From IMG/VR virus record IMGVR_UViG_3300046047_000262: DNA of 64,000 nt. One strand, given 5' to 3'. This stretch comes from a virus. How positions within the stretch are numbered: position 1 is the first letter of the stretch; the number at the start of each line of letters is the position of its first letter. Of this stretch, positions 1 through 12,366 are shown in pieces. The position numbers were made by a program, and so were the translations under genes. The notes under the pieces were generated by a model. The model did not search any database, was not told where the DNA came from, and saw nothing but the letters and a program-made list of their open reading frames with translations.

Positions 1-40
1 CATTACGAGTGAGACGCTCTACCGACTGAGCTATGGGGGC
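1..40 (-). tRNA. tRNA-Thr(CGT), 3' half cut by window edge
   Basis: GCCCCCA-TA-GCTC D arm; anticodon loop CT-CGT-AA. Confidence 0.85.
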
Positions 41-69
41 ATGATACCATCATCTTGATGCTATCCACG

Positions 70-152
70 TGTCGTCAGAGGGAATCGAACCCTCAAGTCC
101 TAGGACACGGCGTTCTGAACACCGCACGTTTACCTGATTTCGTCATGACGAC
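70..152 (-). tRNA. tRNA-Leu(CAG)
   Basis: Cloverleaf, loop TT-CAG-AA, long V-arm, GGTTCGATTCC, A73. Confidence 0.9.
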
Positions 153-156
153 AATG

Positions 157-231
157 TAGCTCCATTGGGACTCGAACCCAAACCTTATGATTGAAAGTCA
201 TATATGCGCGGACCAAGCACACTGTGGAGCC
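157..231 (-). tRNA. tRNA-Glu(TTC)
   Basis: TATGA/TCATA stem, loop CT-TTC-AA, T arm GGTTCGAGTCC; D arm divergent. Confidence 0.8.
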
Positions 232-402
232 ATAAATGGATACCACTAGTACCATAGTGGCATCCATGGACGTAGCCATCGGACATGTCCATGGATGATG
301 TATAAGTTCATGCATACATGTTCATAATGTATTACACGACACGGTATTGGTACGACCGTATCATCATTATGATCCTTGTCCGATTCCTGCAGGTAGGCCA
401 CG

Positions 403-478
403 TGGTGCCCACGGTCGGACTCGAACCGACAACCCTCAGTTTAGGAAACTGATGCTCTATCCATTGAGCTACGTAGGC
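403..478 (-). tRNA. tRNA-Arg(CCT)
   Basis: Loop TT-CCT-AA, A20, encoded CCA. Confidence 0.95.
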
Positions 479-487
479 AATGATTAC

Positions 488-516
488 ATGATACCATGTT
501 CCGCCGATGATGTCAA
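488..516 (-). promoter_or_regulatory. sigma70-type promoter internal to the tRNA array
   Basis: Minus strand TTGACA-17 nt-(TGG)TATCAT just upstream of tRNA-Arg(CCT). Confidence 0.7.
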
Positions 517-525
517 TATGAATCG

Positions 526-598
526 TGCCCCGGATGGGATTCGAACCCACAACCTACTGATTAGAGGTCAGTCGCTCTATCCATTGAGCTACCAAGGC
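526..598 (-). tRNA. tRNA-Arg(TCT), C33
   Basis: ACTGA/TCAGT stem, loop CC-TCT-AA, A20. Confidence 0.92.
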
Positions 599-630
599 AT
601 ATACTAAAGATGATCATAGCAAGGTCATCA

Positions 631-706
631 TGGTGCCTCTGACAGGATTCGAACCTGCAACGCCTGGTTCCGAGGACCAGCGCTCTATCCATTGAGCTAC
701 AAAGGC
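631..706 (-). tRNA. tRNA-Arg(TCG), C33
   Basis: Loop CC-TCG-GA, A20, encoded CCA. Confidence 0.92.
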
Positions 707-707
707 G

Positions 708-781
708 TGCCCATAATCGGATTCGAACCGATAACCTTCTGTTCCGTAGACAGACGCTCTATCCAATTGAGCTATATGGGC
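708..781 (-). tRNA. tRNA-Arg(ACG)
   Basis: Loop CT-ACG-GA, A20. Confidence 0.95.
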
Positions 782-793
782 ATGATGATGAAG

Positions 794-880
794 CGGATAG
801 TGCGGGATTCGAACCCACGGATCTCATAGAAGATCACGATCTTTCCAAGATCGCTCATTCGACCACTCTGACAACTATCC
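794..880 (-). tRNA. tRNA-Ser(GGA)
   Basis: Loop TT-GGA-AA, long V-arm, G73. Confidence 0.93.
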
Positions 881-1085
881 AAGTATGATAGAACGTTTGC
901 ACTTGCCGGCATGAAACCGACAGTGCGTAGCCCGAGTCACAGATTATGGGTCTGTACCGAACACGTTCTAATCCAGATAAAGCCCTGATCCTATGATTGT
1001 CTTCAATCCTCATAGGAAGAACAATGATCTGTTTCTCATGATGTGAGCATGATAGTGAAGCCTACCGATGTTCTCACCATGATAG

Positions 1086-1172
1086 CGGGTGGAGTGGGAG
1101 TCGGACCCACGGTGGTGTTACCCACACTGGTTTAGCAAACCAGTCAGCATTCACCGAATTGCAATTCCACCC
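1086..1172 (-). tRNA. tRNA-Ser(GCT)
   Basis: Loop TT-GCT-AA, V-arm, G73; T loop variant TCCGACT. Confidence 0.85.
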
Positions 1173-1204
1173 ATGAACAGTAATCATTATACCATGAATA
1201 CTCG

Positions 1205-1290
1205 CGGAGTGTAAGGGAATCGAACCCCTAACCGGATTAACGGCATCCGTTTTCAAAACGGAGCGGACTTGCCAATAGCCCACACACTCC
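1205..1290 (-). tRNA. tRNA-Ser(TGA)
   Basis: Loop TT-TGA-AA, V-arm, G73. Confidence 0.9.
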
Positions 1291-1329
1291 ATGGAGAACC
1301 CCCATCACCACCATACGATGATGACAGGG

Positions 1330-1404
1330 TGGTACAGGTCAAGGGAATCGAACCCTAGGAATCGATCATGTAAGTATCGTCCCCGTTCCTGATAACGGAC
1401 CTGT
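1330..1404 (-). tRNA. Atypical tRNA-like gene, nominal anticodon TAC (Val)
   Basis: Perfect acceptor ACAGGTC/GACCTGT plus ACCA and a T loop; D arm abuts the acceptor with no U8-A9; loop CT-TAC-AT. Confidence 0.55.
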
Positions 1405-1569
1405 TGACATGTCTCAAGATCATGCTTCAAAGTAAGTACCACCAATCCGCCGATATCATGATGCGTTCTCTAGAATCAGCATCATGATCGTTGAGTATCG
1501 ACCGGTGGTATCCGATGGCATCTTCGCAACGACGAATGCTTCCACTGATCAAGTGGCATCGAATTATCG

Positions 1570-1642
1570 AGCGGGCAACGGGATTCGAACCCGCGGTCTC
1601 AACCTTGGCAAGGTCGCGCTTTACCAACTAAGCTATGCCCAC
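1570..1642 (-). tRNA. tRNA-Gly(GCC)
   Basis: Loop TT-GCC-AA, U73. Confidence 0.93.
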
Positions 1643-1668
1643 ATTATGGTATCAGCATTGATACCAAG

Positions 1669-1742
1669 TGCTCCCAAGTGGATTCGAACCACTGACTTCA
1701 TCTGCGTGAGAGATGCGATCTACCGGACTGATCTATAGGAAC
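1669..1742 (-). tRNA. tRNA-Val(CAC)
   Basis: Loop CT-CAC-GC, A73. Confidence 0.9.
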
Positions 1743-1744
1743 GG

Positions 1745-1821
1745 GTGCGGGAGAGGGATTTGAACCCCCAACAACATGCTTATGAGGCACGAGAGCTACC
1801 GAGTTGCTGCTTGATCCCGCG
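1745..1821 (-). tRNA. tRNA-Met(CAT), initiator-like
   Basis: CGCGGG start with C1:A72 mismatch, loop CT-CAT-AA; lacks the three G-C anticodon-stem pairs. Confidence 0.8.
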
Positions 1822-1862
1822 TGGATAATCAGGAATCGAACCTGAACGTGTACCATATACCC
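1822..1862 (-). ncRNA. 41-nt acceptor+T-arm minihelix with G3:U70 and A73
   Basis: GGGTAT-ATGGTACACGT-TCAGG TTCGATT CCTGA-TTATCC-A. Confidence 0.5.
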
Positions 1863-1868
1863 TGTTAA

Positions 1869-1944
1869 TGGTTCTCCGAGCTGGATTCGAACCAACACTA
1901 TTCCGTTCCAGAGACGGATGCATTGCCAGTTATGCTATCGGAGA
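1869..1944 (-). tRNA. tRNA-Gln(CTG)
   Basis: U1:A72, loop CT-CTG-GA, encoded CCA. Confidence 0.92.
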
Positions 1945-1976
1945 ATACACTTGGAATCATGATGACACCAAGTCCG

Positions 1977-2047
1977 AGCGGATGACGGGAATCGAACCCG
2001 TTCCGAATGCTTGGGAAGCATCCGTGCGACCACTACACCACATCCGC
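1977..2047 (-). tRNA. tRNA-Gly(CCC)
   Basis: GCGGATG acceptor, loop TT-CCC-AA, U73. Confidence 0.93.
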
Positions 2048-2072
2048 AATGATATGCTAATATCAAGTTAAG

Positions 2073-2143
2073 CTGCCCATGCTGGGATCGAACCAACGTT
2101 AAGAGTTCCAAAGACTCCCGTCTTGCCATTAAACGAATGGGCA
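2073..2143 (-). tRNA. tRNA-Gln(TTG)
   Basis: U1:A72, loop CT-TTG-GA, G73. Confidence 0.92.
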
Positions 2144-2308
2144 ATACATGGTTTTGGTTACCAGACCATGAACTGGCTTAGCTAACCCTAAGTACACACT
2201 TTCAATCAAGAAAGCTTCCCGTATCGCGTTTAAGTTGCTGTCTTCGCGCGCATCCCACAGATGAACTGCCTATCGGTTGGGGTTGTGGACTCGATAGTGA
2301 GGGAACCG

Positions 2309-2352
2309 TGATGCAGAGGGATTCGAACCCTCGATAAGCCTTATCCTGCATC
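2309..2352 (-). ncRNA. 44-nt mini-tRNA (acceptor, one hairpin, T arm)
   Basis: GATGCA-G-GATAA GGC TTATC-GAGGG TTCGAAT CCCTC-TGCATC-A; all stems perfectly paired. Confidence 0.6.
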
Positions 2353-2363
2353 CTACTACATCG

Positions 2364-2434
2364 AACTGGTGATCGGAGTCGAACCGACTTACACTGTTTT
2401 GCAGACAGCTACCTGGCCGTTTGGTTACACCAGC
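2364..2434 (-). tRNA. tRNA-Cys(GCA)
   Basis: Loop CT-GCA-AA, U73. Confidence 0.9.
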
Positions 2435-2480
2435 ATAGTACTCTCAACGTGCAGAGTACATGACAACATCTGTTATCAAG

Positions 2481-2551
2481 AGGCTCACCAGAGAATCGAA
2501 CTCTGATCGCTTGTTTACAGGACAAGTGCTCTCCCATTGAGCTAGTGAGCC
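2481..2551 (-). tRNA. tRNA-Thr(TGT), C33
   Basis: CTTGT/ACAAG stem, loop CC-TGT-AA. Confidence 0.88.
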
Positions 2552-2595
2552 ATATGTGTATATTATAACACATCTCTCAGACAAAATATACCACG

Positions 2596-2666
2596 AGCGG
2601 ATGACGGGAATCGAACCCGCATAATCAGTTTGGAAGACTGACATTCTACCATTGAACTACATCCGC
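2596..2666 (-). tRNA. tRNA-Gly(TCC)
   Basis: Loop CT-TCC-AA, U73. Confidence 0.95.
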
Positions 2667-2898
2667 ATCAATTATCATCGTCCCGCACCGGGGACGTCCA
2701 TACGCATACGAACCCGTGTGTATACTACGATGCCTTGTACGGGGCATCGTGTGGGTACATCACGAAATTCATTGTTGTATTGCACATGTTTTCCCTATCA
2801 TCACCATGAGCTCAGGTAATCATTCACATTGCAGGTCGACTCTACACGGATGATCACTGCTCATGGGTACTTTCAGACTCACAGGTAGTACGATAACG

Positions 2899-2971
2899 TG
2901 GAGACGATGGGTATCGAACCCACTACCTTCTCGATGCTAACGAGATGCTCTACCAATTGAGCTACGTCCCC
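2899..2971 (-). tRNA. tRNA-Ala(AGC), A34
   Basis: GGGGACG/CGTCTCC with G3:U70, A73; loop TT-AGC-AT. Confidence 0.92.
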
Positions 2972-3175
2972 AAAATGATCGATTATGAGTGATCATAACC
3001 GATCCATGTATCAGGAGAGCAACCTCATCATGATTATTGCATACTTCTTCGTATGCTCGTCAAGCGGTCCAAGCAGAGCAAAGAACCCAATCATTGTTGA
3101 CACTGGAAGCCCTATTGGCCACATCCTGAAACAGATGATACACCACACGTAGTACTACGTGATTCATCTACCATC

Positions 3176-3249
3176 GTGAATGACATGGGATTCGAACCCA
3201 TGATCTCTTACATTACCGTAAGCGCTCCTACCAATTGAGCTTCCATTCA
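3176..3249 (-). tRNA. Atypical tRNA with 6-nt anticodon loop, identity undetermined
   Basis: Good D and T arms; CTTAC-GGTAAT-GTAAG anticodon arm. Confidence 0.6.
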
Positions 3250-3383
3250 ACCAATCATTGAAAATCCTTTATAGCACAGGACAATCGATCATCTGGTTAT
3301 GTTATACAAGGGCACTATGATTCTGATAGAACCATGCTCTCATAAGAACCGTATTTGATGACTGTTATCATACTACGGTATCG

Positions 3384-3459
3384 TCGTGGAGGATGGATTT
3401 GAACCATCAACCTCATGGATATGAATCATGCGCTCTAACCTGACTTGAGCTACCCCACG
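3384..3459 (-). tRNA. tRNA-Met(CAT), elongator-like
   Basis: Loop TT-CAT-AT, C1:G72, A73. Confidence 0.85.
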
Positions 3460-3478
3460 ATAAGTATGATCATGATAG

Positions 3479-3551
3479 TGGAGACAATGGGATTCGAACC
3501 CACCACATTCTCCGTGCGAGGGAGAATCGCCGCCCAGGAACATGTGTCCCC
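3479..3551 (-). tRNA. tRNA-Ala(CGC)
   Basis: G3:U70, A73; loop CT-CGC-AC; unusual D arm. Confidence 0.85.
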
Positions 3552-3564
3552 ATGATGCATACCG

Positions 3565-3636
3565 TGGATACATGAGGGATTCGAACCCTCACCTTCTCCG
3601 TGCAAAGGAGATGTGCTACCATTGACACTAATGACC
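3565..3636 (-). tRNA. tRNA-Ala(TGC) with irregular acceptor stem
   Basis: Loop TT-TGC-AC; acceptor GGTCAT/ATGTATCC is bulged. Confidence 0.75.
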
Positions 3637-3643
3637 AGTATCG

Positions 3644-3727
3644 TTGTGCGTGAGGGATTCGAACCCCCGTACTTTCAATAAGAACTGGGTTACGGCCAGT
3701 CGCATTTAACCACTCTGCCAACGCACA
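3644..3727 (-). tRNA. tRNA-Tyr(GTA), C33, U1:A72
   Basis: Loop CC-GTA-AC, V-arm, A73. Confidence 0.85.
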
Positions 3728-3859
3728 ATAGTATCAAGATTGATGTGATCATGTTCCCATCCTTGATACATATGGGAGCATGCTTACAATAGGATTTACA
3801 GGTAGGTTAACCTATGAGCTACAAACCCATTATCCCTCCTACCACACCTATTGCAAACG

Positions 3860-3946
3860 CGGTCGATGAGGGATTCGAACCCCCGATAGGCTTTCACCTA
3901 TACTTGTTTTCAGGACAAGCTCCATAAGCCACTCGGACAATCGACC
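3860..3946 (-). tRNA. tRNA-Ser(TGA), C33
   Basis: Loop CC-TGA-AA, V-arm, G73; paralog of 4249-4335. Confidence 0.9.
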
Positions 3947-4144
3947 AAGCAGGATAAGTCTGCCGTTTCGACTCATCCTCGTATCATGTTACAGTAGCAT
4001 TATAATCCACTGGTGTGAACGGGAATTACTGCATGTATTCGTTCACATTGACAGCAAAGCGTATACACCTTGCTGTCATAATGGTTGCAATCCTTGATGG
4101 CATAACGGCGACACCAAGGATTTCACTGCTGTTGTAAGCATGAG

Positions 4145-4219
4145 TGCCGTTGTAGGATTCGAACCAACGATCTTCTGATTCGGGAGGTCAGATGCTCTAT
4201 CCAATTGAGCTATAACGGC
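4145..4219 (-). tRNA. Arg-type tRNA with 9-nt anticodon loop (CCG/CCCG)
   Basis: A20 Arg body like 708-781; TCTGA-CCTCCCGAA-TCAGA. Confidence 0.75.
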
Positions 4220-4248
4220 AATGGTGATAGTCAGAATTACTATCATCG

Positions 4249-4335
4249 CGGTTGATGAGGGATTCGAACCCCCGATAGGTTTTCACCTATGCTTGTTTTC
4301 GAAACAAGTTCCTTCAACCACTCGGACAATCAACC
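4249..4335 (-). tRNA. tRNA-Ser(CGA)
   Basis: Loop TT-CGA-AA, V-arm, G73. Confidence 0.93.
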
Positions 4336-4356
4336 ATAATTATCAATATGATAACG

Positions 4357-4429
4357 TTGGACTATCGGGAATCGAACCCGAATCTATGGTGCCACAGACC
4401 ATCGCTCTAACCGTTGAGCTATAGACCAC
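4357..4429 (-). tRNA. tRNA-His(GTG), G-1 opposite A73
   Basis: Loop CT-GTG-GC. Confidence 0.85.
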
Positions 4430-4676
4430 ATAGGTCACACGATTCAAGCCATCATGTGACCAGTTTAACGTCATGAGACGTATTATTGTATAGGGTGAAT
4501 GGTATGCCCATTCTTGATGCTCCAATCCTTTATGTATGAACGTGTGGTTATATCCATACAGGTATTGGAGATGTTCCGCCAACCAGATGACGCCTGGCCA
4601 CGCACCACTGAGACTTGATGGTGATGAGATCCCACTACACGAGTGAATAGCTTATGCCTACAACGTGTGATCATCG

Positions 4677-4750
4677 TGCCGACAGTCCGGGTCGAACGGA
4701 CAACCTCAGAGGCTTCAACTCTGCGCTCTCGCCAATTGAGCTATGACGGC
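4677..4750 (-). tRNA. tRNA-Phe(GAA)
   Basis: Loop TT-GAA-GC, A73. Confidence 0.9.
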
Positions 4751-5004
4751 ATAAACGGGAAGCTTTTCGGTCTTGTACTTCAACTATCATCGCTTCCCTT
4801 CAGTATTCCAACTGCTGATACCATATGACGATGGTATCATTGTTCACATTGAATGAGTGTGAACAATCACAGGGTTTATCGCTCGGTACGATGCTCCTAC
4901 ACCCTATAGACAGTCATTCTTATCGGCGTTATGACTACGTGCGTGATTACCTTATCCTATCGTCATGATGTCACTCATAACGGTGATCCCGCTTTATTAC
5001 CCAG

Positions 5005-5075
5005 TGTCTTAAGAGAATTATGATATCTCGCATACTTGCTTCTATCCAAGTGCTCTTCCTCTGAGCTATTAAGAC
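5005..5075 (-). tRNA. Atypical tRNA: Lys-type body, 8-nt anticodon loop, ATCATAA T loop
   Basis: GTCTTAA/TTAAGAC acceptor; D arm identical to Lys 8241 and 8991; ACTTG-GATAGAAG-CAAGT. Confidence 0.6.
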
Positions 5076-5160
5076 ATTTTCAGTCGGATGGATCGTCAAT
5101 CCATCGTTACGGTTGTTCCTACCGTGGTCTTATATAATGACTTTAGCCTACGACTGAACG

Positions 5161-5244
5161 TGCATCCGACCTGACTCGAACAGGCAAGTCCATGATGGAC
5201 GATGGTTCCTAGGACCATTGTGTTTACCATTTCACCACGGATGC
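5161..5244 (-). tRNA. tRNA-Leu(TAG), C33
   Basis: Loop CC-TAG-GA, V-arm, A73. Confidence 0.9.
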
Positions 5245-5249
5245 ATGTG

Positions 5250-5323
5250 TGCCCACAAGAGGGCTTGAACCTCTGACCTTGGAATTATGAGTTCCGCGCT
5301 CTGACCGACTGAGCTATGCGGGC
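5250..5323 (-). tRNA. tRNA(CAT), Ile2- or Met-type
   Basis: Loop CT-CAT-AA; third CAT tRNA in the array. Confidence 0.85.
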
Positions 5324-5462
5324 ATTAATGGCGGCTTTCCCGCTAGCACGATGTTCTCATCGAACGAGCAACGACATTGTACGGGCATAACAACCTGAGT
5401 TGATTAAGTTAATAACCACTTGAGCCAGGTTGACCTTGAGGCGACTGTTGCCATACCCCTCG

Positions 5463-5526
5463 TAGTCTCACGAGGAATCGAACCTCGTCGTTTGATGGAA
5501 CCTCAGGAATACTACCAATTGAGACC
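5463..5526 (-). ncRNA. 64-nt shrunken tRNA with the tRNA-Glu acceptor stem
   Basis: GGTCTCA/TGAGACT-A identical to Glu(CTC) at 7496; intact T arm; D and anticodon arms reduced. Confidence 0.55.
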
Positions 5527-5534
5527 ATTTTAGA

Positions 5535-5653
5535 CCTAAGTGAGTGAGATGCGACTGCTTTTTCAATGCTGCACTACCAATCCCCACGGAGATTGAGCGG
5601 GATTCGAACCCGCAAGGACTTAGTTATTGTCCACCACTTGCCACTCACTCAGG
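5535..5653 (-). ncRNA. YrlA/Y-RNA-like RNA with a circularly permuted tRNA domain
   Basis: 12-bp terminal stem enclosing V-arm, T arm (GCGGG TTCGAAT CCCGC), loop-closed acceptor hairpin, TA, D-like arm. Confidence 0.65.
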
Positions 5654-5721
5654 ACTGGAATCCGTATTAGGACACCAGCAGAAATGATTATAGGAGTAAC
5701 TAATTCCAATCATTACCTACG

Positions 5722-5805
5722 CGGATGATGCGGGGGTCGAACCCGCCACGGTATTACCCTAACCTCATTAGCAGTGAGGCGCTTTAGCCGCTCAGCCTAC
5801 CATCC
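5722..5805 (-). tRNA. tRNA-Ser(GCT)
   Basis: Loop CT-GCT-AA, V-arm, G73. Confidence 0.9.
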
Positions 5806-5989
5806 ATTGTTTTTCAAACAGCTCCAAGAGGAACAGATTGATTTATTATTGAGTTACAGATCCATAATGTCGTGTATTGTCAATGTATCCTAACATTGAC
5901 ACGAGGTGGCCTTCCCCCGAACCTTGATGGACGACACCATCAAGGTTTCCAACATGATCATACGTTCATGCCGCCAATTCCACGACTAG

Positions 5990-6041
5990 AGTCTCAAAGA
6001 GGAATCGAACCTCAACATGCACACGGCATGGTCATCCAGAC
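5990..6041 (-). ncRNA. 52-nt D-armless mini-tRNA
   Basis: GTCTGGA/TTGAGAC acceptor with one mismatch, CATGC-CGTGT-GCATG hairpin, GAGG TTCGATT CCTC. Confidence 0.45.
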
Positions 6042-6159
6042 TGAATCCCAACGAGTGTAATCTCGTTAGAGCATCGAAAGTCTTCGATACACCAACATCC
6101 GCATTAGGGTTCGTCCCCCCTCCTCACCCAGTCGACACTGGTTGAGGTCAGATATTGCG

Positions 6160-6231
6160 CGACCACGACGGGAGTCGGACCCGCTGTCCTCTCCTCGACA
6201 GGGAGATGCCTGACCGTCAGGCTCCGTGGCC
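6160..6231 (-). tRNA. tRNA-Asp(GTC)
   Basis: Loop CT-GTC-GA, G73, T loop variant TCCGACT. Confidence 0.85.
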
Positions 6232-6405
6232 ATATGATTCTGGTGGGACTGGTGTACCTATCTAGGGTCATAGACCAATAGGTACGCGAATCCTGATCAC
6301 CAGCAAGTAATGCGGATGATTGCCTGCCGTGGCTACAGCAGTCATCACGTCTAGCGAGCCGTGCGTCATGTTTCCATCACGTATATGACCGTTTCAACGA
6401 TTGCG

Positions 6406-6461
6406 TGGAGCGGCACGGATTCGAACCGTGCTTCGGGTATAGGTTCGAATGAATCCACCCC
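6406..6461 (-). ncRNA. 56-nt tmRNA-TLD-like Ala-identity mini RNA
   Basis: GGGGTGG/CCGCTCC-A with G3:U70; stemless D loop; TTCG/CGAA hairpin; CACGG TTCGAAT CCGTG. Confidence 0.6.
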
Positions 6462-6615
6462 GCATTTCTGGCTCGGGATAACCAATCCCAAGCACTATTG
6501 AACCAATATGATGACCAGCAGAATGGTTAACCTCTACTATTCACCATCAAACACCCCTATCACATGATCCTGTCACCATTCACATGTAAGCATACGGAAT
6601 ATAACCATATACCAG

Positions 6616-6689
6616 TACCTTCTACGGGATTCGAACCCGTACTAAACAGTTCCTTAGACTGTCGCCTCTACCAATTGGGCTAAGAAGGC
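6616..6689 (-). tRNA. tRNA-Leu(AAG), A34, no long V-arm
   Basis: Loop CT-AAG-GA; 5-nt variable loop; Leu-type D arm; A73. Confidence 0.88.
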
Positions 6690-6747
6690 AAAGACTGGTC
6701 GATCATATTGGATCAACCAGTTCTAGAGCATCTCATTCGACGACTCG

Positions 6748-6830
6748 TACCCCCACTCGGACTTGAACCGAGATTCCTTGCGGAAACCGCTTTTGAGGCG
6801 GTCGTGTCTACCAATTCCAACCATAGGGGC
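6748..6830 (-). tRNA. tRNA-Leu(CAA)
   Basis: Loop CT-CAA-AA, V-arm, A73. Confidence 0.93.
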
Positions 6831-6833
6831 GGG

Positions 6834-6917
6834 GTGTACAACGGGACTCGAACCCGCATGGGATAACTCCCATCAGGGTCACAACCTGATGTCGCAAACC
6901 ATATCGACCTTGTACAC
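6834..6917 (-). tRNA. tRNA-His(GTG) with long V-arm
   Basis: G-1:C73, loop TT-GTG-AC, V-arm TGGGA-GTTA-TCCCA. Confidence 0.85.
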
Positions 6918-6919
6918 AG

Positions 6920-6992
6920 CGACCACGACCGGAATTGAACCGGTGACCTCTTGCGTGACAAGCAAGCGTTCTTACCCCTGAACTACGCGGCC
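6920..6992 (-). tRNA. tRNA-Asp(GTC)
   Basis: Loop TT-GTC-AC, G73. Confidence 0.93.
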
Positions 6993-7196
6993 ATATCATC
7001 CTTTACGGAGATGAATTGAGATGGCACTCAATCTAGTATCCCATGCCATCACCGCAGGGTTCGTCGCCCCCTGATTAAACGTGCAACGATGATAACCATC
7101 ATTATCAGCGCTTCCTGATGATCCGACTCATTCTCACTAAACGCTGATTAGACTATTTGAATGAGCTATGTGATATCAATATGTACTCACGTTGCG

Positions 7197-7268
7197 AGCC
7201 TTGACTTAGAATCGAACTAAGATCAACTGCTTACTAAACAGTCGCACGAACCATTGTGCTATCAAGGC
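7197..7268 (-). tRNA. tRNA-Thr(AGT), A34
   Basis: GCCTTGA acceptor, loop TT-AGT-AA. Confidence 0.9.
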
Positions 7269-7327
7269 ATTCATAGTATTCCGAAACATGTAATCACGTA
7301 TTGGAATGTTAATATGGAAAAGATTAG

Positions 7328-7398
7328 TGCCCCATCCGGGAATCGAACCCGGTTCTGACCCTCCACGGGCCTGTTCTAACCAGTGTCACTAATGGGTT
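7328..7398 (-). tRNA. Degenerate or atypical tRNA (nominal TGG)
   Basis: Intact T arm; GGCCC-GTGGA-GGGTC anticodon arm; frayed acceptor end. Confidence 0.45.
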
Positions 7399-7405
7399 GT
7401 TAATC

Positions 7406-7486
7406 CTGATGGCATCAGGTAATTAGGCTGATGACATCAGAGAACGTTCCTTTGGTATCATCGGGTAATTAGGCCGACGATACACC
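7406..7486. repeat. Two hairpins sharing the loop GTAATTAGG
   Basis: catcag-gtaattagg-ctgatg and catcgg-gtaattagg-ccgacg. Confidence 0.7.
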
Positions 7487-7495
7487 GGACCTCCG

Positions 7496-7568
7496 TAGTC
7501 TCAGCGGGAATCGAACCCGCAATCTTCTCCTTGAGAGGGAGACGAGGTAACCGTTGCTCTATGAGACC
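7496..7568 (-). tRNA. tRNA-Glu(CTC)
   Basis: Loop CT-CTC-AA. Confidence 0.92.
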
Positions 7569-7829
7569 ATAAGTCATGGCTGATAGTTCCATGACTGTAT
7601 CATGGTACTCCATGAACGAGACTGTTCTCAGTCAGCGAGGATAGTGTTTATAGAACCTGAGGTATGGTTTAACTAACCCACAGTAACAGGCAGTTGACTT
7701 CTACTCCATCAATACGATATTCCATCCAATTCGATGTGATGTTGAAGCGTGCGACGAGGAACCCGATGTCCCATGGTTATCAATCATGGTCCGCTATTTC
7801 CACTATTAGTGGCTGCACGATGACACACG

Positions 7830-7884
7830 TGGAATTATGGGAATCGAACCCATGACCATGCTGTTAGCAGGGCACCATGTTTCC
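7830..7884 (-). ncRNA. 55-nt D-armless mini-tRNA containing CTGCTAA
   Basis: GGAA/TTCC-A ends, ATGGG TTCGATT CCCAT T arm, single central arm. Confidence 0.45.
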
Positions 7885-7905
7885 TGTCAACAAGTGTTGA
7901 CAAAG

Positions 7906-7976
7906 TACGCCCACCAGGAATCGAACCCAAGTCAAGAGGTTTGGAAGCTCTTGTGTTACCACTACACCATAGGCGT
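7906..7976 (-). tRNA. tRNA-Trp(CCA), A73
   Basis: Loop TT-CCA-AA with C31:C39 mismatch. Confidence 0.8.
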
Positions 7977-8039
7977 ATGTTGACGTTCCCTATGTGTGGT
8001 CGCGTCATGATGATGTATAAGCAAGATCGTTGCTTATCG

Positions 8040-8120
8040 TGGTGCATGGGGGACTCGAACCCTCGAACCCTGTGGGAGCTGGTTTACAGCCAGCCGCAAT
8101 TGCCGCTATGCGAATGCACC
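8040..8120 (-). tRNA. tRNA-Tyr(GTA)
   Basis: G1:C72, loop CT-GTA-AA, V-arm, A73. Confidence 0.92.
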
Positions 8121-8148
8121 ATAAAGGTGGGTCAATGCGTTATACTCG

Positions 8149-8215
8149 CGTACATTGGGGAATCGAACCCCGCTGTTTGAAGAGTTTCACTTCACTTTGA
8201 TCCGGACACCAGTCC
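8149..8215 (-). pseudogene. tRNA-like remnant
   Basis: T arm GGGG TTCGATT CCCC, TGAAG/CTTCA arm, GGAC-TGGT-GTCC D-like arm; no pairing acceptor found. Confidence 0.35.
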
Positions 8216-8240
8216 AAAACCGAGCTGCAGATCGGTTTCG

Positions 8241-8312
8241 TGCCTCAGGAGAATTATGATATCTCGACCCTCTGTTTAAGAGACAGATGCTCTTCCTCTG
8301 AGCTACTAAGGC
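8241..8312 (-). tRNA. tRNA-Lys(CTT) with ATCATAA T loop
   Basis: Loop CT-CTT-AA; T arm GAGAT-ATCATAA-TTCTC. Confidence 0.85.
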
Positions 8313-8313
8313 G

Positions 8314-8385
8314 TACGGGTAGATAGAATTGAACTATCCTTTCTTCTGTATCAGAGAAGTGTTCTAACCGATGAACTATACCCGT
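8314..8385 (-). tRNA. tRNA-Ile(GAT)
   Basis: Loop CT-GAT-AC, A73. Confidence 0.88.
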
Positions 8386-8494
8386 AAACGAACGGCTCCC
8401 TCTCAAAGTCATTGCTCCTCGTTTTAGAACAAACATTATGAGGGGGTTACCGGGCAGACTGTCTCTCGACTAAAGCTGGTTGCCAACAACTCAG

Positions 8495-8577
8495 TGCCCT
8501 TACTCGGACTCGAACCGAGACTCCTTACGGAAGCCGATTTTAAGTCGGCCGTGTCTACCAATTCCAACCATAAGGGC
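8495..8577 (-). tRNA. tRNA-Leu(TAA)
   Basis: Loop CT-TAA-AA, V-arm. Confidence 0.93.
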
Positions 8578-8582
8578 ATTCG

Positions 8583-8712
8583 GAGTACGTATCGGAATTG
8601 AACCGGTATACGTGGTGCGCTTAACCAATACCCACGAATATGAATATCTTCATATCACGTAGGCGCTGGAATTGGACCAGATCATCACGCACCACGCCAG
8701 ACCACTCGTACC
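8583..8712 (-). ncRNA. Double-elbow tRNA-mimic RNA
   Basis: Open acceptor plus T arm joined by a perfect 9-bp helix to a second T arm plus loop-closed acceptor. Confidence 0.6.
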
Positions 8713-8794
8713 TTCCTACCAGATTCGGTAAGACTTGGAAAGATGCATCATTCCAAGCATTATGAGACATTATACTAGTATTTCTCATAACCTG

Positions 8795-8876
8795 TGCCTC
8801 TACTCGGACTCGAACCGAGACTCCTCACGGAAACTGATTTTAAGTCAGTCGTGTCTACCAATTCCACCATAAAGGC
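8795..8876 (-). tRNA. tRNA-Leu(TAA), second copy
   Basis: Loop CT-TAA-AA; paralog of 8495 and 6748. Confidence 0.93.
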
Positions 8877-8990
8877 ATAATGTGAGCATCGCACTCACAA
8901 GGTTGCTATAGCGTTCGGCTCATTAGTGGTCACAACTAACCATGATAGTACTTAAACTATGCTGCTAACTCAAAGCCTACTGATACTGCG

Positions 8991-9062
8991 TGCCCCCGGA
9001 GAATTACGATATCTCGACACGCGGATTAAAAGTCCGCTGCTCTTCCTCTGAGCTACAAGGGC
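8991..9062 (-). tRNA. tRNA-Lys(TTT) with ATCGTAA T loop
   Basis: Loop CT-TTT-AA; T arm GAGAT-ATCGTAA-TTCTC. Confidence 0.85.
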
Positions 9063-9152
9063 ATGATGTTGACGATTGTACACTTGCCAACAGGTTTGCG
9101 TGATATATTCGCTTATCGCGGGTAGACGCATCTACCTGATAACCATGAGAAC

Positions 9153-9266
9153 AAGATGTACGAGGAATCGAACCTCGGTCGCCGACCCTGGCAATGAAGG
9201 AGTCGAACCTTCCACAGGATGGGTCTAACATCCTGTCTGACCTACCATAACAGTCAGCATACATCT
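9153..9266 (-). ncRNA. 114-nt tRNA-like RNA with two T arms (nominal anticodon AGA)
   Basis: AGATGTA/TACATCT acceptor; 5-bp D stem; 8-bp anticodon stem; two GG-TTCGA-NT-CC arms. Confidence 0.65.
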
Positions 9267-9290
9267 CAACATTGTTCTCACATGTCATCG

Positions 9291-9379
9291 CTGGTCTAGC
9301 AGGAATCGAACCTGCGATACCCTTTTACGGGATTCTGACGCATTAACAGTGCGTTGGCATGCCGCTTGCCGATAGACCA
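9291..9379 (-). tRNA. tRNA-Asn(GTT) with long V-arm
   Basis: U1:A72, G73, loop CT-GTT-AA; about 20-nt variable region with CCC-GTAAAA-GGG. Confidence 0.85.
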
Positions 9380-9695
9380 ATAAGTACGGGATCTTACCGT
9401 TCCTCAATGATACTCTTCTCAATACCATTAACCATGTATACCTGCGATAATAGGAGTTAATCACTGTAAGCATTTGATGCTTCGGATATGTTCCATAGTG
9501 TATGCGATGTGTCCTACGCGAGATGCAGCATAGATGCACGGTTCACATAGATTATCGGACAAGCCATACTCCGTTAATCGTATTGATGAGATATGACAAG
9601 GTGGTCACAGGGCACCTACACCTCGTCATTGCACGCGGTTATCAATGATAACCATGTAAGCCATTGGTGTCCCTTAGCTTACATTATGCGTACCG

Positions 9696-9766
9696 TGCTC
9701 CCACGGGGAATCGAACCCCGATTTACTGATTAAGAGTCAGCAGTTCTACCGTTGAACTATAGAAGC
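9696..9766 (-). tRNA. tRNA-Lys(CTT)
   Basis: Loop CT-CTT-AA, canonical T loop. Confidence 0.92.
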
Positions 9767-9966
9767 AAAAACCCGTATGACCCTTTGAGGGTAACTCACT
9801 CTCAAACTAGAATGGGTCATACGGGAAAATCACCAAACAAAGGAGAAGGATCGAACCTTTCCTAGCAAAAACCGTATGACCGTTTGAGGACAACTCGCTC
9901 TCAAACTGGAAATGGGTCATATGGTAAATAATACGCTAACAAAGGAGTACTGTGCCTTGCCCTAGC
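9767..9966. repeat. Two tandem 100-nt structured repeats (candidate sRNAs)
   Basis: Units 9767-9866 and 9867-9966 share the CCGTATGACC...TTTGAG..CTCAAA...GGTCATA hairpin, AACAAAGGAG and CCTAGC. Confidence 0.85.
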
Positions 9967-10008
9967 ATACCAAACCGCATATGCTTCTGCCGTATTGCTA
10001 CGACATAG

Positions 10009-10079
10009 CTCCCCGAGAAAGAATCGAACTTTCATTAAATGATTAACAGTCATCCGTTCTGCCCTTGAACTACCGGGGA
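10009..10079 (-). tRNA. tRNA-Asn(GTT)
   Basis: TCCCCGG acceptor, G73, loop CT-GTT-AA. Confidence 0.92.
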
Positions 10080-10087
10080 ATAAAGAT

Positions 10088-10566
10088 GCCGGTGATAACG
10101 CTCACCGGCGGGCGGCATGGTTGATACCTTGATGAGATCATGCTGTTCTCATCATTGGTCAGGATCATTCGTCCTGATTGGTCAGCTCTCATGCCATCAT
10201 GATGACTGGTATGATTGCGTATGTGATTCATCTGAAGAAACTTTTTTAATGACTACGGGCCGTCAGTGTTTCATGAATGACGTTGGTGTCCCGCTCATGG
10301 GTTATCATCGCGTGCTCGGAATACAATGTAATCCTCGTCAGGTGTTGCCACCATCGGTTGTAAGGGCGATGTCTTCCCCATGCTCGATCCTGTGTTCAGG
10401 CGCTCCGTCACGTGCTCACATGGTGACCAAACACGATAATTCTTTAACATTCCGGTATCGTGACCGTCGCATACATCTCCCGCAGTAATGAACTGCCATC
10501 CTCGTTAAGTTATGTGACCATCCTATCGTGACTTGCCTTGGTTGTCAACCTCGGCGTGTCGCGATG
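10088..10566. ncRNA. Candidate large structured RNA(s)
   Basis: About 480 nt with no credible ORF, packed with nested hairpins. Confidence 0.4.
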
Positions 10567-10582
10567 ACCTCGATGATCATCG

Positions 10583-10656
10583 TCGGCTATGTCAGATTCG
10601 AACTGACGGTCTCCTGCTCCCAAAGCAGGCGGATTACCAAGCTTTCCTAATAGCCG
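10583..10656 (-). tRNA. tRNA-Pro(TGG)
   Basis: CGG start, loop TT-TGG-GA, A73. Confidence 0.92.
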
Positions 10657-10732
10657 TTATCTTTTCAATTTTTGTTTCCGATGAACCAGTGTATCATAAT
10701 CTTTCGATTACGCAACATCGGCGTGTCGGTCG

Positions 10733-10804
10733 TCGGAATGGACTGGTTCGAACAGTCGTTCTCCTGCACCCGAAGCAGGCGGATTACCACTTTCCTACAT
10801 CCCG
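10733..10804 (-). tRNA. tRNA-Pro(CGG)
   Basis: CGG start, loop TT-CGG-GT, A73. Confidence 0.92.
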
Positions 10805-10824
10805 TTACATTCTTCAATTATACA

Positions 10825-10859
10825 CTGAGCCCCGAATCCTTTAAGGGTCCGGGGCTCAG
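10825..10859 (-). terminator. Strong GC hairpin ahead of the first tRNA (terminator or attenuator)
   Basis: CTGAGCCCCG...CGGGGCTCAG inverted repeat. Confidence 0.55.
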
Positions 10860-10881
10860 AACATCTGATGTGTAATCACAC

Positions 10882-11028
10882 TTACACGATAAGCCCCACT
10901 CTCATGGGATAACCGAAATCTTGAATTGTATTATTCTGCAAGGACCATGACACTGGTTTCAGACATGGGAGCATGGCTGAACGCTTAATGTCATTACGAT
11001 GTATCATACTTGATTGTAACGATCTCAT
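10882..11028 (-). CDS. 48-aa leader ORF (MRSLQSS...MRVGLIV)
   Basis: GGAAGGAG Shine-Dalgarno 6 nt before ATG, directly downstream of a consensus promoter; below the ORF-track cutoff. Confidence 0.55.
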   Translation of the reverse strand: MRSLQSSMIHRNDIKRSAMLPCLKPVSWSLQNNTIQDFGYPMRVGLIV

Positions 11029-11066
11029 AGCCAACTCCTTCCTTCATGTCCACTTGCCTGATACTT

Positions 11067-11095
11067 ATTGTACCACACAATATCAACGTTTGCAA
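11067..11095 (-). promoter_or_regulatory. Array promoter P2
   Basis: TTGCAA-17 nt-TACAAT with extended TGTGG. Confidence 0.8.
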
Positions 11096-11147
11096 AACAA
11101 TCTAACAAATTCTTTTTTTCAACTCGTACTGATGAGCTTGTAATATC

Positions 11148-11175
11148 ACTATACCACATAATATCAGTATGTCAA
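11148..11175 (-). promoter_or_regulatory. Array promoter P1
   Basis: TTGACA-16 nt-TATAGT with extended TGTGG; sequence paralogous to P2. Confidence 0.8.
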
Positions 11176-11244
11176 AACAATATCACCATTATTTTTCGAT
11201 TATTCTGATAACACCCGATAACCATTGGTATACCAGCGTTCCCA

Positions 11245-12366
11245 TCATCTCTGTAACATGACTATGGTCTTCAATACCGCGAGTTCAAGGAACGGTTTGC
11301 CATCAGGTGCCCACACCATGTTCTGCATCGCCTCACCAAGGAACCCGAATGCTCTGACCAGTTTCTCATTACCCGTGTCCTGAGCGATCTTCCTGTGGTT
11401 CTTGAATAACAGCATATCATTCTCGCTTTCCTCATTATTCGCAAGGAACAGCATGCTCCTGGTATCGTTGAGCAGATTCTGAATGAGCGTCTTGGGATCA
11501 TCCCCGTCCACAATGGCATCATTGATGACCTTGAATGCGTTGATGACATCACGCTGCTCATATACCGCCCTGGTCAGATCGATACTATGATTGACTGGGA
11601 TCTCACCAGTGGACAGGATGCGTTCCAATGTGGACAATGTTTCCCTTACGGAACCACCGCTTGAACTGACACCACCGGCTTTGATGACTTGTAGTATCTG
11701 GTTCTTCGATATCCTGTGATCCTTTACCAGATCGGTCGCATCCTCTTTGGATATGCCGTACCCTTCGGATTTGCATACATTCATACACAGGTTACCAAGA
11801 TCCTTGACCGATACCAGATGGAACGCCCTGTTCTGGATTCTTGATGTCAATGTCGTCGGCATGGCGTTGACATTCGTGGTACACATGATGAACAACGAGT
11901 TCACATGCTCATCCTCCAACGGTATCAGTAATGAATCGTAAGCGATCTTCGATAGGTTATGCACCTCATCGAGAATCCATACTGGTCTATTGACGCCATC
12001 GGCGGCTCGTCGTGACTGATCGACGATTCTACGGACATCCTCCACTGAACCGTTATTCGCCATGGATAGGTAATGGACACCAAGATTGGTTCCATCATCG
12101 ATACTGGTGCATACATCACATACGTTACATGGTTCACCATCATCGGTGAGATGTTGACAGTTCACTGCTTTCGACATGATCTTCGCCACACTGGTCTTAC
12201 CCGTTCCACGGGGTCCTGCGAAGATGTACGCATCCGCAAGCCTGTGATTGATCACGGCGTTCCTGAGATCATTGACGACAGCATCCTGTCCTATGACTTG
12301 GCTCCATGTCCGAGGACGATACTTCTTGTATAGTTCGATATGTTTAGTGTTATCATTTGTGGTCAT
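11245..12366 (-). CDS. dnaX: DNA polymerase III clamp loader gamma/tau-like (short form)
   Basis: LYKKYRP, GPRGTGKT, Zn module C..PCNVCDVC, ILDEVH. Confidence 0.93.
   Translation of the reverse strand: MTTNDNTKHIELYKKYRPRTWSQVIGQDAVVNDLRNAVINHRLADAYIFAGPRGTGKTSVAKIMSKAVNCQHLTDDGEPCNVCDVCTSIDDGTNLGVHYLSMANNGSVEDVRRIVDQSRRAADGVNRPVWILDEVHNLSKIAYDSLLIPLEDEHVNSLFIMCTTNVNAMPTTLTSRIQNRAFHLVSVKDLGNLCMNVCKSEGYGISKEDATDLVKDHRISKNQILQVIKAGGVSSSGGSVRETLSTLERILSTGEIPVNHSIDLTRAVYEQRDVINAFKVINDAIVDGDDPKTLIQNLLNDTRSMLFLANNEESENDMLLFKNHRKIAQDTGNEKLVRAFGFLGEAMQNMVWAPDGKPFLELAVLKTIVMLQR

Follow-up and report, generated by a model that had tools for sequence, protein, structure and literature searches.

The spacers of a transfer RNA (tRNA) gene array in the IMG/VR virus record IMGVR_UViG_3300046047_000262 contain some 14 modules that keep the top half of a tRNA (the T arm and the 3' acceptor strand), largely without the half that carries the D and anticodon arms. 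The array occupies the minus strand of positions 1–10804, the first 10.8 kb of the 64-kb stretch of DNA analysed here (hereafter, the window). The modules lie on the tRNA strand, exceed chance numbers by far, show a 13:0 bias towards the top half, close an acceptor stem more often than chance allows and form a graded series. The explanation that we favour, with about even confidence, is that they are products of the birth and death of tRNA genes, in which the top half survives because it can still be processed, and not a dedicated RNA system. Pseudogenes in tRNA arrays and RNA C of phage T4 are already known; the scale and the measured top-half bias appear to be new. Reports on the tRNA arrays of huge phages and giant plasmids usually list the genes and ignore the spacers, which here are non-random.

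Half-tRNA modules between the tRNA genes

ARAGORN finds 47 tRNAs between positions 69 and 10804, every one on the minus strand. Infernal adds three genes that ARAGORN does not call, at 8241–8312 (51.1 bits), 3571–3633 (45.8 bits) and 3177–3248 (36.1 bits), together with a match below its cut-off at 1748–1818 (26.9 bits). It also finds a cut tRNA at 1–40, and the array therefore extends past the start of the window. The spacers total 7110 nt, individual spacers being 200–500 nt long, and most of the orphan elements within them are called by neither program.

To count these elements, we used a T-arm motif defined as a 5-bp stem with at least four pairs, G53/C61 and the loop TTCRANN. On the minus strand of 1–11300 the motif occurs 61 times, 44 times within ARAGORN tRNAs and 17 times as an orphan in the spacers. 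It is absent from the plus strand of the array and occurs five times on both strands of the other 52.7 kb. Shuffled spacers (7110 nt) yield a mean of 0.14 motifs, with a maximum of 3 in 500 shuffles. The elements that a first-pass annotation of this stretch had noticed between normal tRNA genes are thus real, as is the anatomy that it had described: a paired T arm in most of them and a closed acceptor stem in several.

The two halves of the tRNA were compared with a pair of covariance models made from the window's own tRNAs. R1 covers the 5' acceptor strand, the D arm and the anticodon arm (47 sequences) and was adopted because a simple D-arm motif scan is too unspecific at three of four pairs. 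R2 covers the T arm and the 3' acceptor strand (44 sequences). Both models searched the full 64 kb without filters, with a cut-off of E≤0.1. R2 gives 60 matches, namely 46 of the 47 ARAGORN tRNAs and 14 orphans, all on the minus strand of the array, where the orphans sit between tRNA genes. R1 recovers 45 of the 47 tRNAs and beyond them matches only 8271–8312, 3595–3637, 5035–5075 and the cut tRNA at 1–40. None of these R1 matches outside ARAGORN tRNAs in the 64 kb represents a 5' half that lacks a T arm. Moreover, a single R2 orphan has an R1 partner (3566–3590, with R1 at 3595–3637), which leaves 13 elements with the top half only and none with the D/anticodon half only.

This result agrees with the first-pass claim that the acceptor/T half is preferentially kept. 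It also bears on a rather unlikely alternative, that the elements are neutral debris and nothing else. On that account, the bias would come from the origin of relics (internal deletions, and a T loop that is the longest word common to all tRNA genes) and from detection, without any selection for processing. However, the two models are equally sensitive on true tRNAs, so detection alone does not yield 13:0, and the top-half bias is real at matched sensitivity. In addition, truncation by rearrangement should also leave 5' halves, and none is seen.

Acceptor stems are closed in excess of chance. A fully paired (7/7) 5' acceptor partner lies within 100 nt upstream of six of the 14 orphans; shuffles give a mean of 1.1, and none of 2000 shuffles reaches six. 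One of the six closures (2432), inside tRNA-Cys, is probably spurious. Minihelix-type closure thus involves all seven pairs in five or six elements and 5–6 pairs in others. In minimum-energy folds the closure holds in most of the closed elements, with the exceptions of 7329–7371 and of 6407–6461, which favours another hairpin. Against shuffles, eight of twelve elements have fold z-scores above −1.3 and four lie at −2.4 to −3.8.

As a set, the 14 R2 orphans are not canonical tRNAs, that is, cloverleaves of at least 29 bits with a 7-nt anticodon loop and with D and anticodon arms 5' of the T arm. With the Infernal model RF00005, only 3566–3590 and 3177–3201 belong to matches above 29 bits; 1745–1769 sits in the 26.9-bit match, and the other 11 have no match at E≤10. 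Below the R2 cut-off there is a tail of degenerate T arms, with 7–8 matches on the array strand at E 0.1–10 against about 1.6 expected from the remaining search space.

A graded set of elements

The elements fall into four grades: odd whole tRNAs, closed minihelices, long composites, and T arms with a 3' strand only. All of those described below lie on the minus strand. Together they form a series, from extra tRNA-like genes of 51, 46, 36 and 27 bits, through anticodon loops of 6 or 8 nt and a shifted D arm, down to the degenerate tail. The first-pass annotation had listed 12 places, which it took for anticodon-less or rearranged tRNA mimics. Nine of them (1330, 1822, 2309, 3176, 5463, 5990, 6406, 7830 and 9153) have an R2 match at E≤0.1. 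The place at 5005 stands as a paralogue of tRNA-Lys genes, the one at 8583 is weak (11.9 bits, E 0.64), and the supposedly permuted member at 5535–5590 falls away, since neither R1 nor R2 matches it. For at least three of the places (3176, 5005 and 1330), an odd or defective tRNA is a better reading than a mimic. Orphans beyond that list lie at 7328–7352, 5589–5613, 9188–9212, 8149–8172 and 9837–9860.

Four to six elements are odd or defective whole tRNAs: a Lys-CTT, an Ala-UGC, a CAU tRNA, a Val-UAC-like element and two with a 6-nt or 8-nt anticodon loop. In the 71-nt cloverleaf-like element at 1334–1404 (R2 17.7 bits), the acceptor stem is fully Watson-Crick paired (7/7) and ACCA follows it. 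The T arm includes a U.U pair, the D arm is displaced by 2 nt, and an A.G pair closes the anticodon-type loop, CUUACAU (UAC, Val). The element is called by neither ARAGORN nor Infernal, and from these features we read it as a defective or unorthodox tRNA-Val(UAC). At 1746–1821 lies a low-scoring tRNA with a CAU anticodon and an initiator-like C1xA72 mismatch (Infernal 26.9 bits, R2 20.8 bits). The tRNA-like gene at 3177–3248 has a 6-nt anticodon loop, and the element at 3567–3646 resembles a tRNA-Ala(UGC) with a defective acceptor stem (Infernal 45.8 bits over model positions 5–66, R1 27.1, R2 21.7). Finally, 8241–8312 is a Lys-CTT gene with a non-canonical T loop, and 5004–5073, with an 8-nt anticodon loop, is a paralogue of such odd-T-loop tRNA-Lys genes (R1 19.8; alignment score 56 to 8241–8312).

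The Lys-type genes have a story of their own. Those at 8990–9062, 8241–8312 and 5004–5073 share a non-canonical T arm, with the word GAGATATCRTAATTCTC and no TTCRA loop. At least 120 IMG/VR stretches contain this word (estimated total, about 200), and many of these places are tRNA-Lys genes of unrelated phage arrays, 84–91% identical to the genes of the window. Its spread suggests that a phage-type tRNA-Lys whose elbow is unusual is widely distributed. Other tRNAs of the array are also peculiar. Two are oversized: a tRNA-His(GTG) of 87 nt with a long extra arm (6831–6917, 44.2 bits) and a tRNA-Asn(GTT) of 90 nt (9290–9379, 52.6 bits). Four have A34, namely Ala(AGC) at 2898–2971, Thr(AGT) at 7196–7268, Leu(AAG) at 6615–6689 and Arg(ACG) at 707–781.

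The closed minihelices are 43–63 nt long and have neither a D nor an anticodon arm. At 1822–1868, wedged between tRNA-Gln(CTG) and the CAU tRNA, an element of about 47 nt has a 5-bp acceptor, a 12-nt linker and a T arm (R2 19.0 bits, z −0.37). The 45-nt element at 2309–2353, which starts 9 nt after tRNA-Cys, has a 6-bp acceptor, a 5-bp hairpin that resembles a Ser-type variable arm, and a T arm (R2 24.8, z −2.43). A 7-bp acceptor and a T arm enclose a 32-nt unstructured middle in the 63-nt element at 5464–5526 (R2 24.1), and the 51-nt element at 5991–6041 combines a 6/7 acceptor with a small hairpin and a T arm (R2 16.5, z −0.37). The 55-nt element at 6407–6461 has a seven-pair acceptor (two G.U) and a perfect T arm (R2 26.0, z −2.84); its 24-nt linker holds an inverted copy of the T loop, which permits an alternative long hairpin. 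The shortest, with 43 nt, lies at 7329–7371, has a 6/7 acceptor and contains the best-scoring orphan (T arm 7328–7352, R2 29.8 bits).

Two elements are longer. The composite at 9154–9266 (113 nt, z −3.18) has two T arms, 9188–9212 and 9153–9177 (R2 22.5 and 21.1), a 7/7 acceptor, a 6-bp D-like arm and an 8-bp anticodon-like arm with a 7-nt loop. The strongly folded spacer element at 8584–8693 (110 nt, z −3.79) has a seven-pair closure, and its terminal hairpin is a weak T-arm-like one.

The last grade consists of 5589–5613, 7829–7853, 8149–8172 and 9837–9860. The first has no convincing 5' partner (R2 24.3), and the second has a 4-bp closing helix (7826–7885, R2 22.8, z 0.03). The third is a weak T arm with 4/5 pairs behind two hairpins (8148–8225; R2 14.1, E 0.15), where the tRNA-Sec model gives 19.8 bits at E 5.5. 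The fourth is degenerate (R2 10.1 bits) and lies between two copies of an 80-nt hairpin repeat. This tandem repeat, at 9864–9942 and 9764–9840, is a long two-part hairpin followed by T5 (terminator-like), one copy standing directly before tRNA-Lys(CTT) and the other before the degenerate T arm.

The elements could also be 3' tRNA fragments left by site-specific integration, since the attachment (att) repeats made by integrases that target tRNA genes consist of a duplicated T arm and 3' acceptor strand. The mechanism is strictly 3'-biased, and four or five orphans, including these four, have no 5' partner. However, the orphans are not copies of the 3' ends of neighbouring tRNAs (the nearest case, 5464–5526, resembles a more distant tRNA-Glu and has a 5' strand too), at least five elements have a 5' acceptor strand of their own, and no integrase or other long gene or open reading frame was found in the 200–500 nt spacers. 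We regard integration as a highly improbable source.

Turnover, selection or debris

Each orphan was aligned locally to every tRNA of the array. Most align by the T-loop consensus only, with three exceptions. The acceptor strands and 3-nt trailer of 5464–5526 are identical to those of tRNA-Glu(CTC) at 7495–7568, about 2 kb away (7/7 and 10/10 letters). The best match of 2309–2353 is positions 53–79 of Ser_tga2, that is, the variable arm and T arm of Ser tRNAs, and 5004–5073 belongs to the Lys family. By these matches, the three elements descend from tRNAs of the array, through duplication followed by internal change. Beyond the T-loop consensus, neither alignment nor family clustering revealed a sequence family common to the orphans. 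A recent-fragment origin for all of them was dropped, the parent being visible in three only. The T-arm identity of 5464–5526 and 9153–9177 (17/17) was likewise set aside as a sign of kinship, as 61 T arms would, by our estimate, contain about 2–3 such pairs by chance.

The acceptor/T-arm half of a tRNA is the part read by RNase P, by RNase Z and by the CCA-adding enzyme. In the account that we favour, genes of the array would be duplicated, recombined and internally deleted, and an internal deletion, which keeps both gene ends, would leave an acceptor/T-arm minihelix. A polycistronic precursor would be transcribed through these elements. Because the kept half is the one that the processing enzymes recognise, a relic would still be cut cleanly from the precursor at its ends, and the maturation of its neighbours would be undisturbed. 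Relics that had lost the top half could not be processed and would be eliminated as junk. Those that remain would serve at most as punctuation for processing or as transient minihelix by-products, like T4 RNA C in type.

The first-pass annotation had gone further, and had argued that retention of the top half marks a functional repertoire. This does not follow, because internal deletions keep both gene ends in any case. Nor does the set look like a single repertoire: it is heterogeneous, it grades into low-scoring tRNAs and degenerate T arms, and related contigs appear to skip several of its members. Among the functions that had been proposed, a role as processing signals is the most likely, and we keep it because 6407–6461 looks more conserved than its flanks.

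Homologous arrays had been named as the place to look for such conservation. No close relative of the array was found in IMG/VR, JGI metagenomes, GTDB genomes or GenBank phages. Megablast of the array against GenBank phages gave no match, and neither did a search of IMG/VR for an exact tRNA-Thr(AGT) word. Relatives of the clamp loader encoded downstream (in IMG/VR, JGI metagenomes and GTDB genomes) are only 31–47% identical, share no synteny and have their arrays elsewhere. Several of these relatives (L001, L003, L006, L008, L010 and others) carry their own transfer-messenger RNA (tmRNA) gene about 4–9 kb upstream of the clamp-loader gene, with tags such as ANAIQDDYTLAV and ANANKADYALYA; in the window, neither ARAGORN nor Rfam finds a tmRNA. 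The array of one distant relative (G001) has 40 ARAGORN tRNAs and only four orphan T arms.

Variant contigs from other sludge runs (X2, X4, X5 and X6) are closer, being 85–92% identical over several spacers (of their 893 differences, 40 are listed). The stretches concerned are 5987–6433, 6343–6579, 6918–7983, 8237–8866 and 9022–9362. They skip, or replace by a few letters, 8580–8909, 9065–9385, 9825–9964 and 7572–7906, each of which contains an orphan, and one contig (X4) skips 8584–8693 and 9154–9266. Several elements thus appear to be absent from related contigs. A match of the 6407–6461 word in IMG/VR, the only one, fell in an AT-rich stretch of a giant-virus contig, at a locus without a tRNA, and was read as chance.

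The bias is not confined to this array. We assembled 51 phage arrays with at least 15 tRNAs each, retrieved by a Lys T-loop word; they include some duplicates and are not relatives of the window. The T-arm motif scan finds 157 orphans beside 1235 tRNAs in this set (0.13 per tRNA). The window has 0.36 per tRNA, and several of the 51 arrays are equally rich. In five arrays, four of which were picked for their many orphans, R1 and R2 together give 117 complete tRNAs, 12 5'-only and 54 3'-only elements, and only two of the 12 5'-only elements lie outside ARAGORN tRNAs. Five further arrays, taken by tRNA number, give 118 complete tRNAs and, outside ARAGORN tRNAs, 11 3'-only versus six 5'-only elements. 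The top-half bias is therefore general across ten unrelated phage arrays, and weaker when the arrays are not selected. Since the same trend appears in unrelated arrays and in T4 rnaC, it is not special to this element.

Individual orphans in the comparison set are diverse. One is the end of a tmRNA. In an IMG/VR contig (L047, 6286–9317), seven identical 25-nt modules of T arm and 3' strand, each scoring 24.6 bits with R2, are spread across the tRNA array and constitute a repeat family of top-half modules. Three related phages share a conserved RNA-like stretch of some 140 nt (L023 5756–5910, L029 4880–5030 and L101 7871–8025), which has a T arm at its end and no match in Rfam.

Several observations weigh against the birth-and-death account. 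First, the survivorship step, in which unprocessable relics are purged, is one that we only infer. Second, the joints of the variant contigs were placed at 80% likeness and may partly stem from other elements. Third, the stems are well kept even though no parent tRNA is recognisable, three cases apart. Kept stems without a visible parent are unexpected for old neutral relics and hint at selection on pairing. Fourth, 6407–6461 with its short flanks (6388–6473) is 88% identical in variant contigs of three runs, with 10 differences in 86 nt and no gaps, and the spacer around it is only about 77% identical and gapped. Beyond 6388–6473 the contigs of the three runs continue in sequence unlike that of the window; aligned to a longer reference, one of them (X5) covers 6343–6579 with 36 differences and nine gaps. 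Three of the 10 differences are listed, none of them near the aligned ends, and all three lie in the linker loop. Judged on these alignments, the element looks better conserved than its flanks. Fifth, four elements fold far better than their shuffles (z −2.4 to −3.8). Sixth, the T stem of the L023/L029/L101 stretch shows compensatory changes (GTTGG/CCAAC, GAAGG/CCTTC and GCTGG/CCAGC) in the three related phages. Lastly, T4 RNA C, which has the same type of module, is a real, stable late RNA (PMC9697503).

Many of these points, together with the 13:0 bias and the excess of closed stems, would suit small RNAs that are stable and under selection, like T4 RNA C in type: purpose-made mimics of the top half that would serve as decoys or sponges for enzymes or immune effectors recognising the acceptor/T-arm part or the 3' tail, or as non-ribosomal carriers of aminoacyl groups. 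This is the reading of the first-pass annotation. The module of T4 rnaC is the same and its RNA is real, with a role unknown in the sources that describe it (PMC3014915, PMC9697503). Published accounts also describe how phage tRNAs can counter defences directed at tRNAs, and how some defences cut the tails of tRNAs (PMC10264068, PMC11464382, PMC11555353, PMC12851939). On the other hand, the elements have no class, length or sequence in common, form a continuum down to degenerate T arms, are few in the distant relative and are apparently missing, in several cases, from related contigs. Only 1404–1334 encodes CCA, and the window encodes no tRNA-processing or tRNA-repair enzyme. Decoys for anticodon nucleases are a poor fit as well, because RNAs without an anticodon arm cannot act as such. 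Kept stems without a parent, the conservation of 6407–6461 and the four strong folds keep an RNA C-like function alive, and we consider selected RNAs of this kind unlikely. Quite improbable, in our estimate, is the broader idea that giant elements and huge phages maintain diversified half-tRNAs which RNase P and RNase Z would cut out, which would receive a CCA tail and which would be used in trans, either as decoys or sponges for host effectors recognising the top half or 3' tail of tRNAs or as titrators of processing enzymes that favour the element's own tRNAs.

The neutral-debris alternative draws on the same heterogeneity and degenerate tail, on the apparently variable presence of elements among relatives, on the weaker trend in unselected arrays (11 versus six) and on the eight of 12 elements that fold no better than shuffles (z above −1.3). 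In addition to the equal sensitivity of the models and the missing 5' halves, it is opposed by stems that stay paired where parentage is no longer visible and by the conservation of 6407–6461 over its flanks. Birth and death of tRNA genes, with the top half retained as processable, is the explanation that we keep.

The array's setting and known systems

Downstream of the array, the window encodes a clamp loader, an NAD-ligase, a sigma factor, GyrA and a TraG/VirD4-type coupling protein, followed by a VirB11-type ATPase, a pilin, a sortase and topoisomerase I. This gene content fits a genome that may be a giant plasmid-like extrachromosomal element. Two bioreactor-sludge runs contain the stretch almost whole, and five more contain small shares of it; no RNA run is listed among them. 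Group I introns that split tRNAs were considered and dropped, as no intron model matches at E≤10. Signals for transcription are not enriched in the array: it has 32 promoter-like sites versus 21.4 ± 4.4 in shuffles and eight terminator-like sites versus 7.3, neither difference being significant. The largest spacer (10080–10581, 502 nt) has no tRNA-like match from R1 or R2. It carries, on the minus strand, a terminator-like hairpin at 10109–10088 and a promoter-like site at 10548–10520, and variant contigs have small insertions or deletions at 10325–10361.

Among known RNAs, tmRNA and mascRNA-type mimics also consist of a top half with T arm and acceptor stem, and the elements of the window are not members of either family. 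A tmRNA combines a tRNA-like domain with pseudoknots and a tag reading frame; the Rfam tmRNA model gives only a 17-nt match (model positions 347–363) at 5597–5613. The mascRNA model, whose gathering score is 42.5, gives 21.8 and 20.1 bits. With a tRNA-Ser 108 nt upstream, a one-piece tmRNA at 5589–5613 does not fit; the same tRNA stands in the way of a tmRNA that is divergent or in two pieces, and that reading was dropped.

Long bacterial arrays offer a closer parallel. In Firmicutes, Mycobacterium and Acidithiobacillus, such arrays move horizontally and are shaped by duplication, deletion and rearrangement (PMC4758250), and the trn operon of Anabaena has three of 26 genes without a detectable tRNA, which are called pseudogenes (PMC8421152). 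The array of the window likewise is a long one, whose genes would have been duplicated, deleted and rearranged. However, the pseudogenes of bacterial arrays, as these sources present them, are whole-length, whereas the relics of the window keep the top half only. The terms 'tRNA-like' and 'truncated' are absent from the main text of PMC4758250, and in the available portions of the literature on tRNA arrays and pseudogenes we found no description of a top-half bias among relics or of the scale seen here. If the bias reflects competence for processing, it shows how polycistronic tRNA operons tolerate the death of their genes.

A precedent for such punctuation exists in the t-elements of plant mitochondria, which are tRNA-like processing signals (PMC1920247). 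They are acceptor/T-arm-like and non-decoding, would be cut by RNase P and RNase Z, and would so punctuate long transcripts, a mechanism like the one that we propose for the elements of the window. The t-elements come from another kingdom and flank messenger RNAs, whereas the elements of the window flank tRNAs and their cleavage is only predicted.

The nearest counterpart is in phage T4, whose late RNAs include two stable ones, RNA C and RNA D, with roles unknown in the sources that report them (PMC3014915, PMC9697503). Like all 14 orphans of the window, rnaC (species 1 RNA) lies in a tRNA cluster and on the tRNA strand. With R2, its 3' end is a module of T arm and 3' acceptor strand (22.6 bits, E 7.6e-5), and R1 does not match it, a pattern common to rnaC and 13 elements of the window; the eight T4 tRNAs all match both models. 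T4 RNA C is reported in older literature to be matured by tRNA-processing enzymes. The scale differs, since T4 has one such RNA beside eight tRNAs (rnaD has no R2 match) and the array of the window has about 14 beside about 50. The stability of RNA C is proven, whereas the elements of the window are known from sequence alone, and the likeness is a model match.

RNA C has stood as an unexplained stable RNA for about 50 years, and the top-half bias links the spacers of the window to its type. If the bias reflects selection on the RNAs, RNA C gains many relatives and its function becomes testable by comparison. Either way, the pair of half-tRNA models makes the question countable across thousands of arrays.

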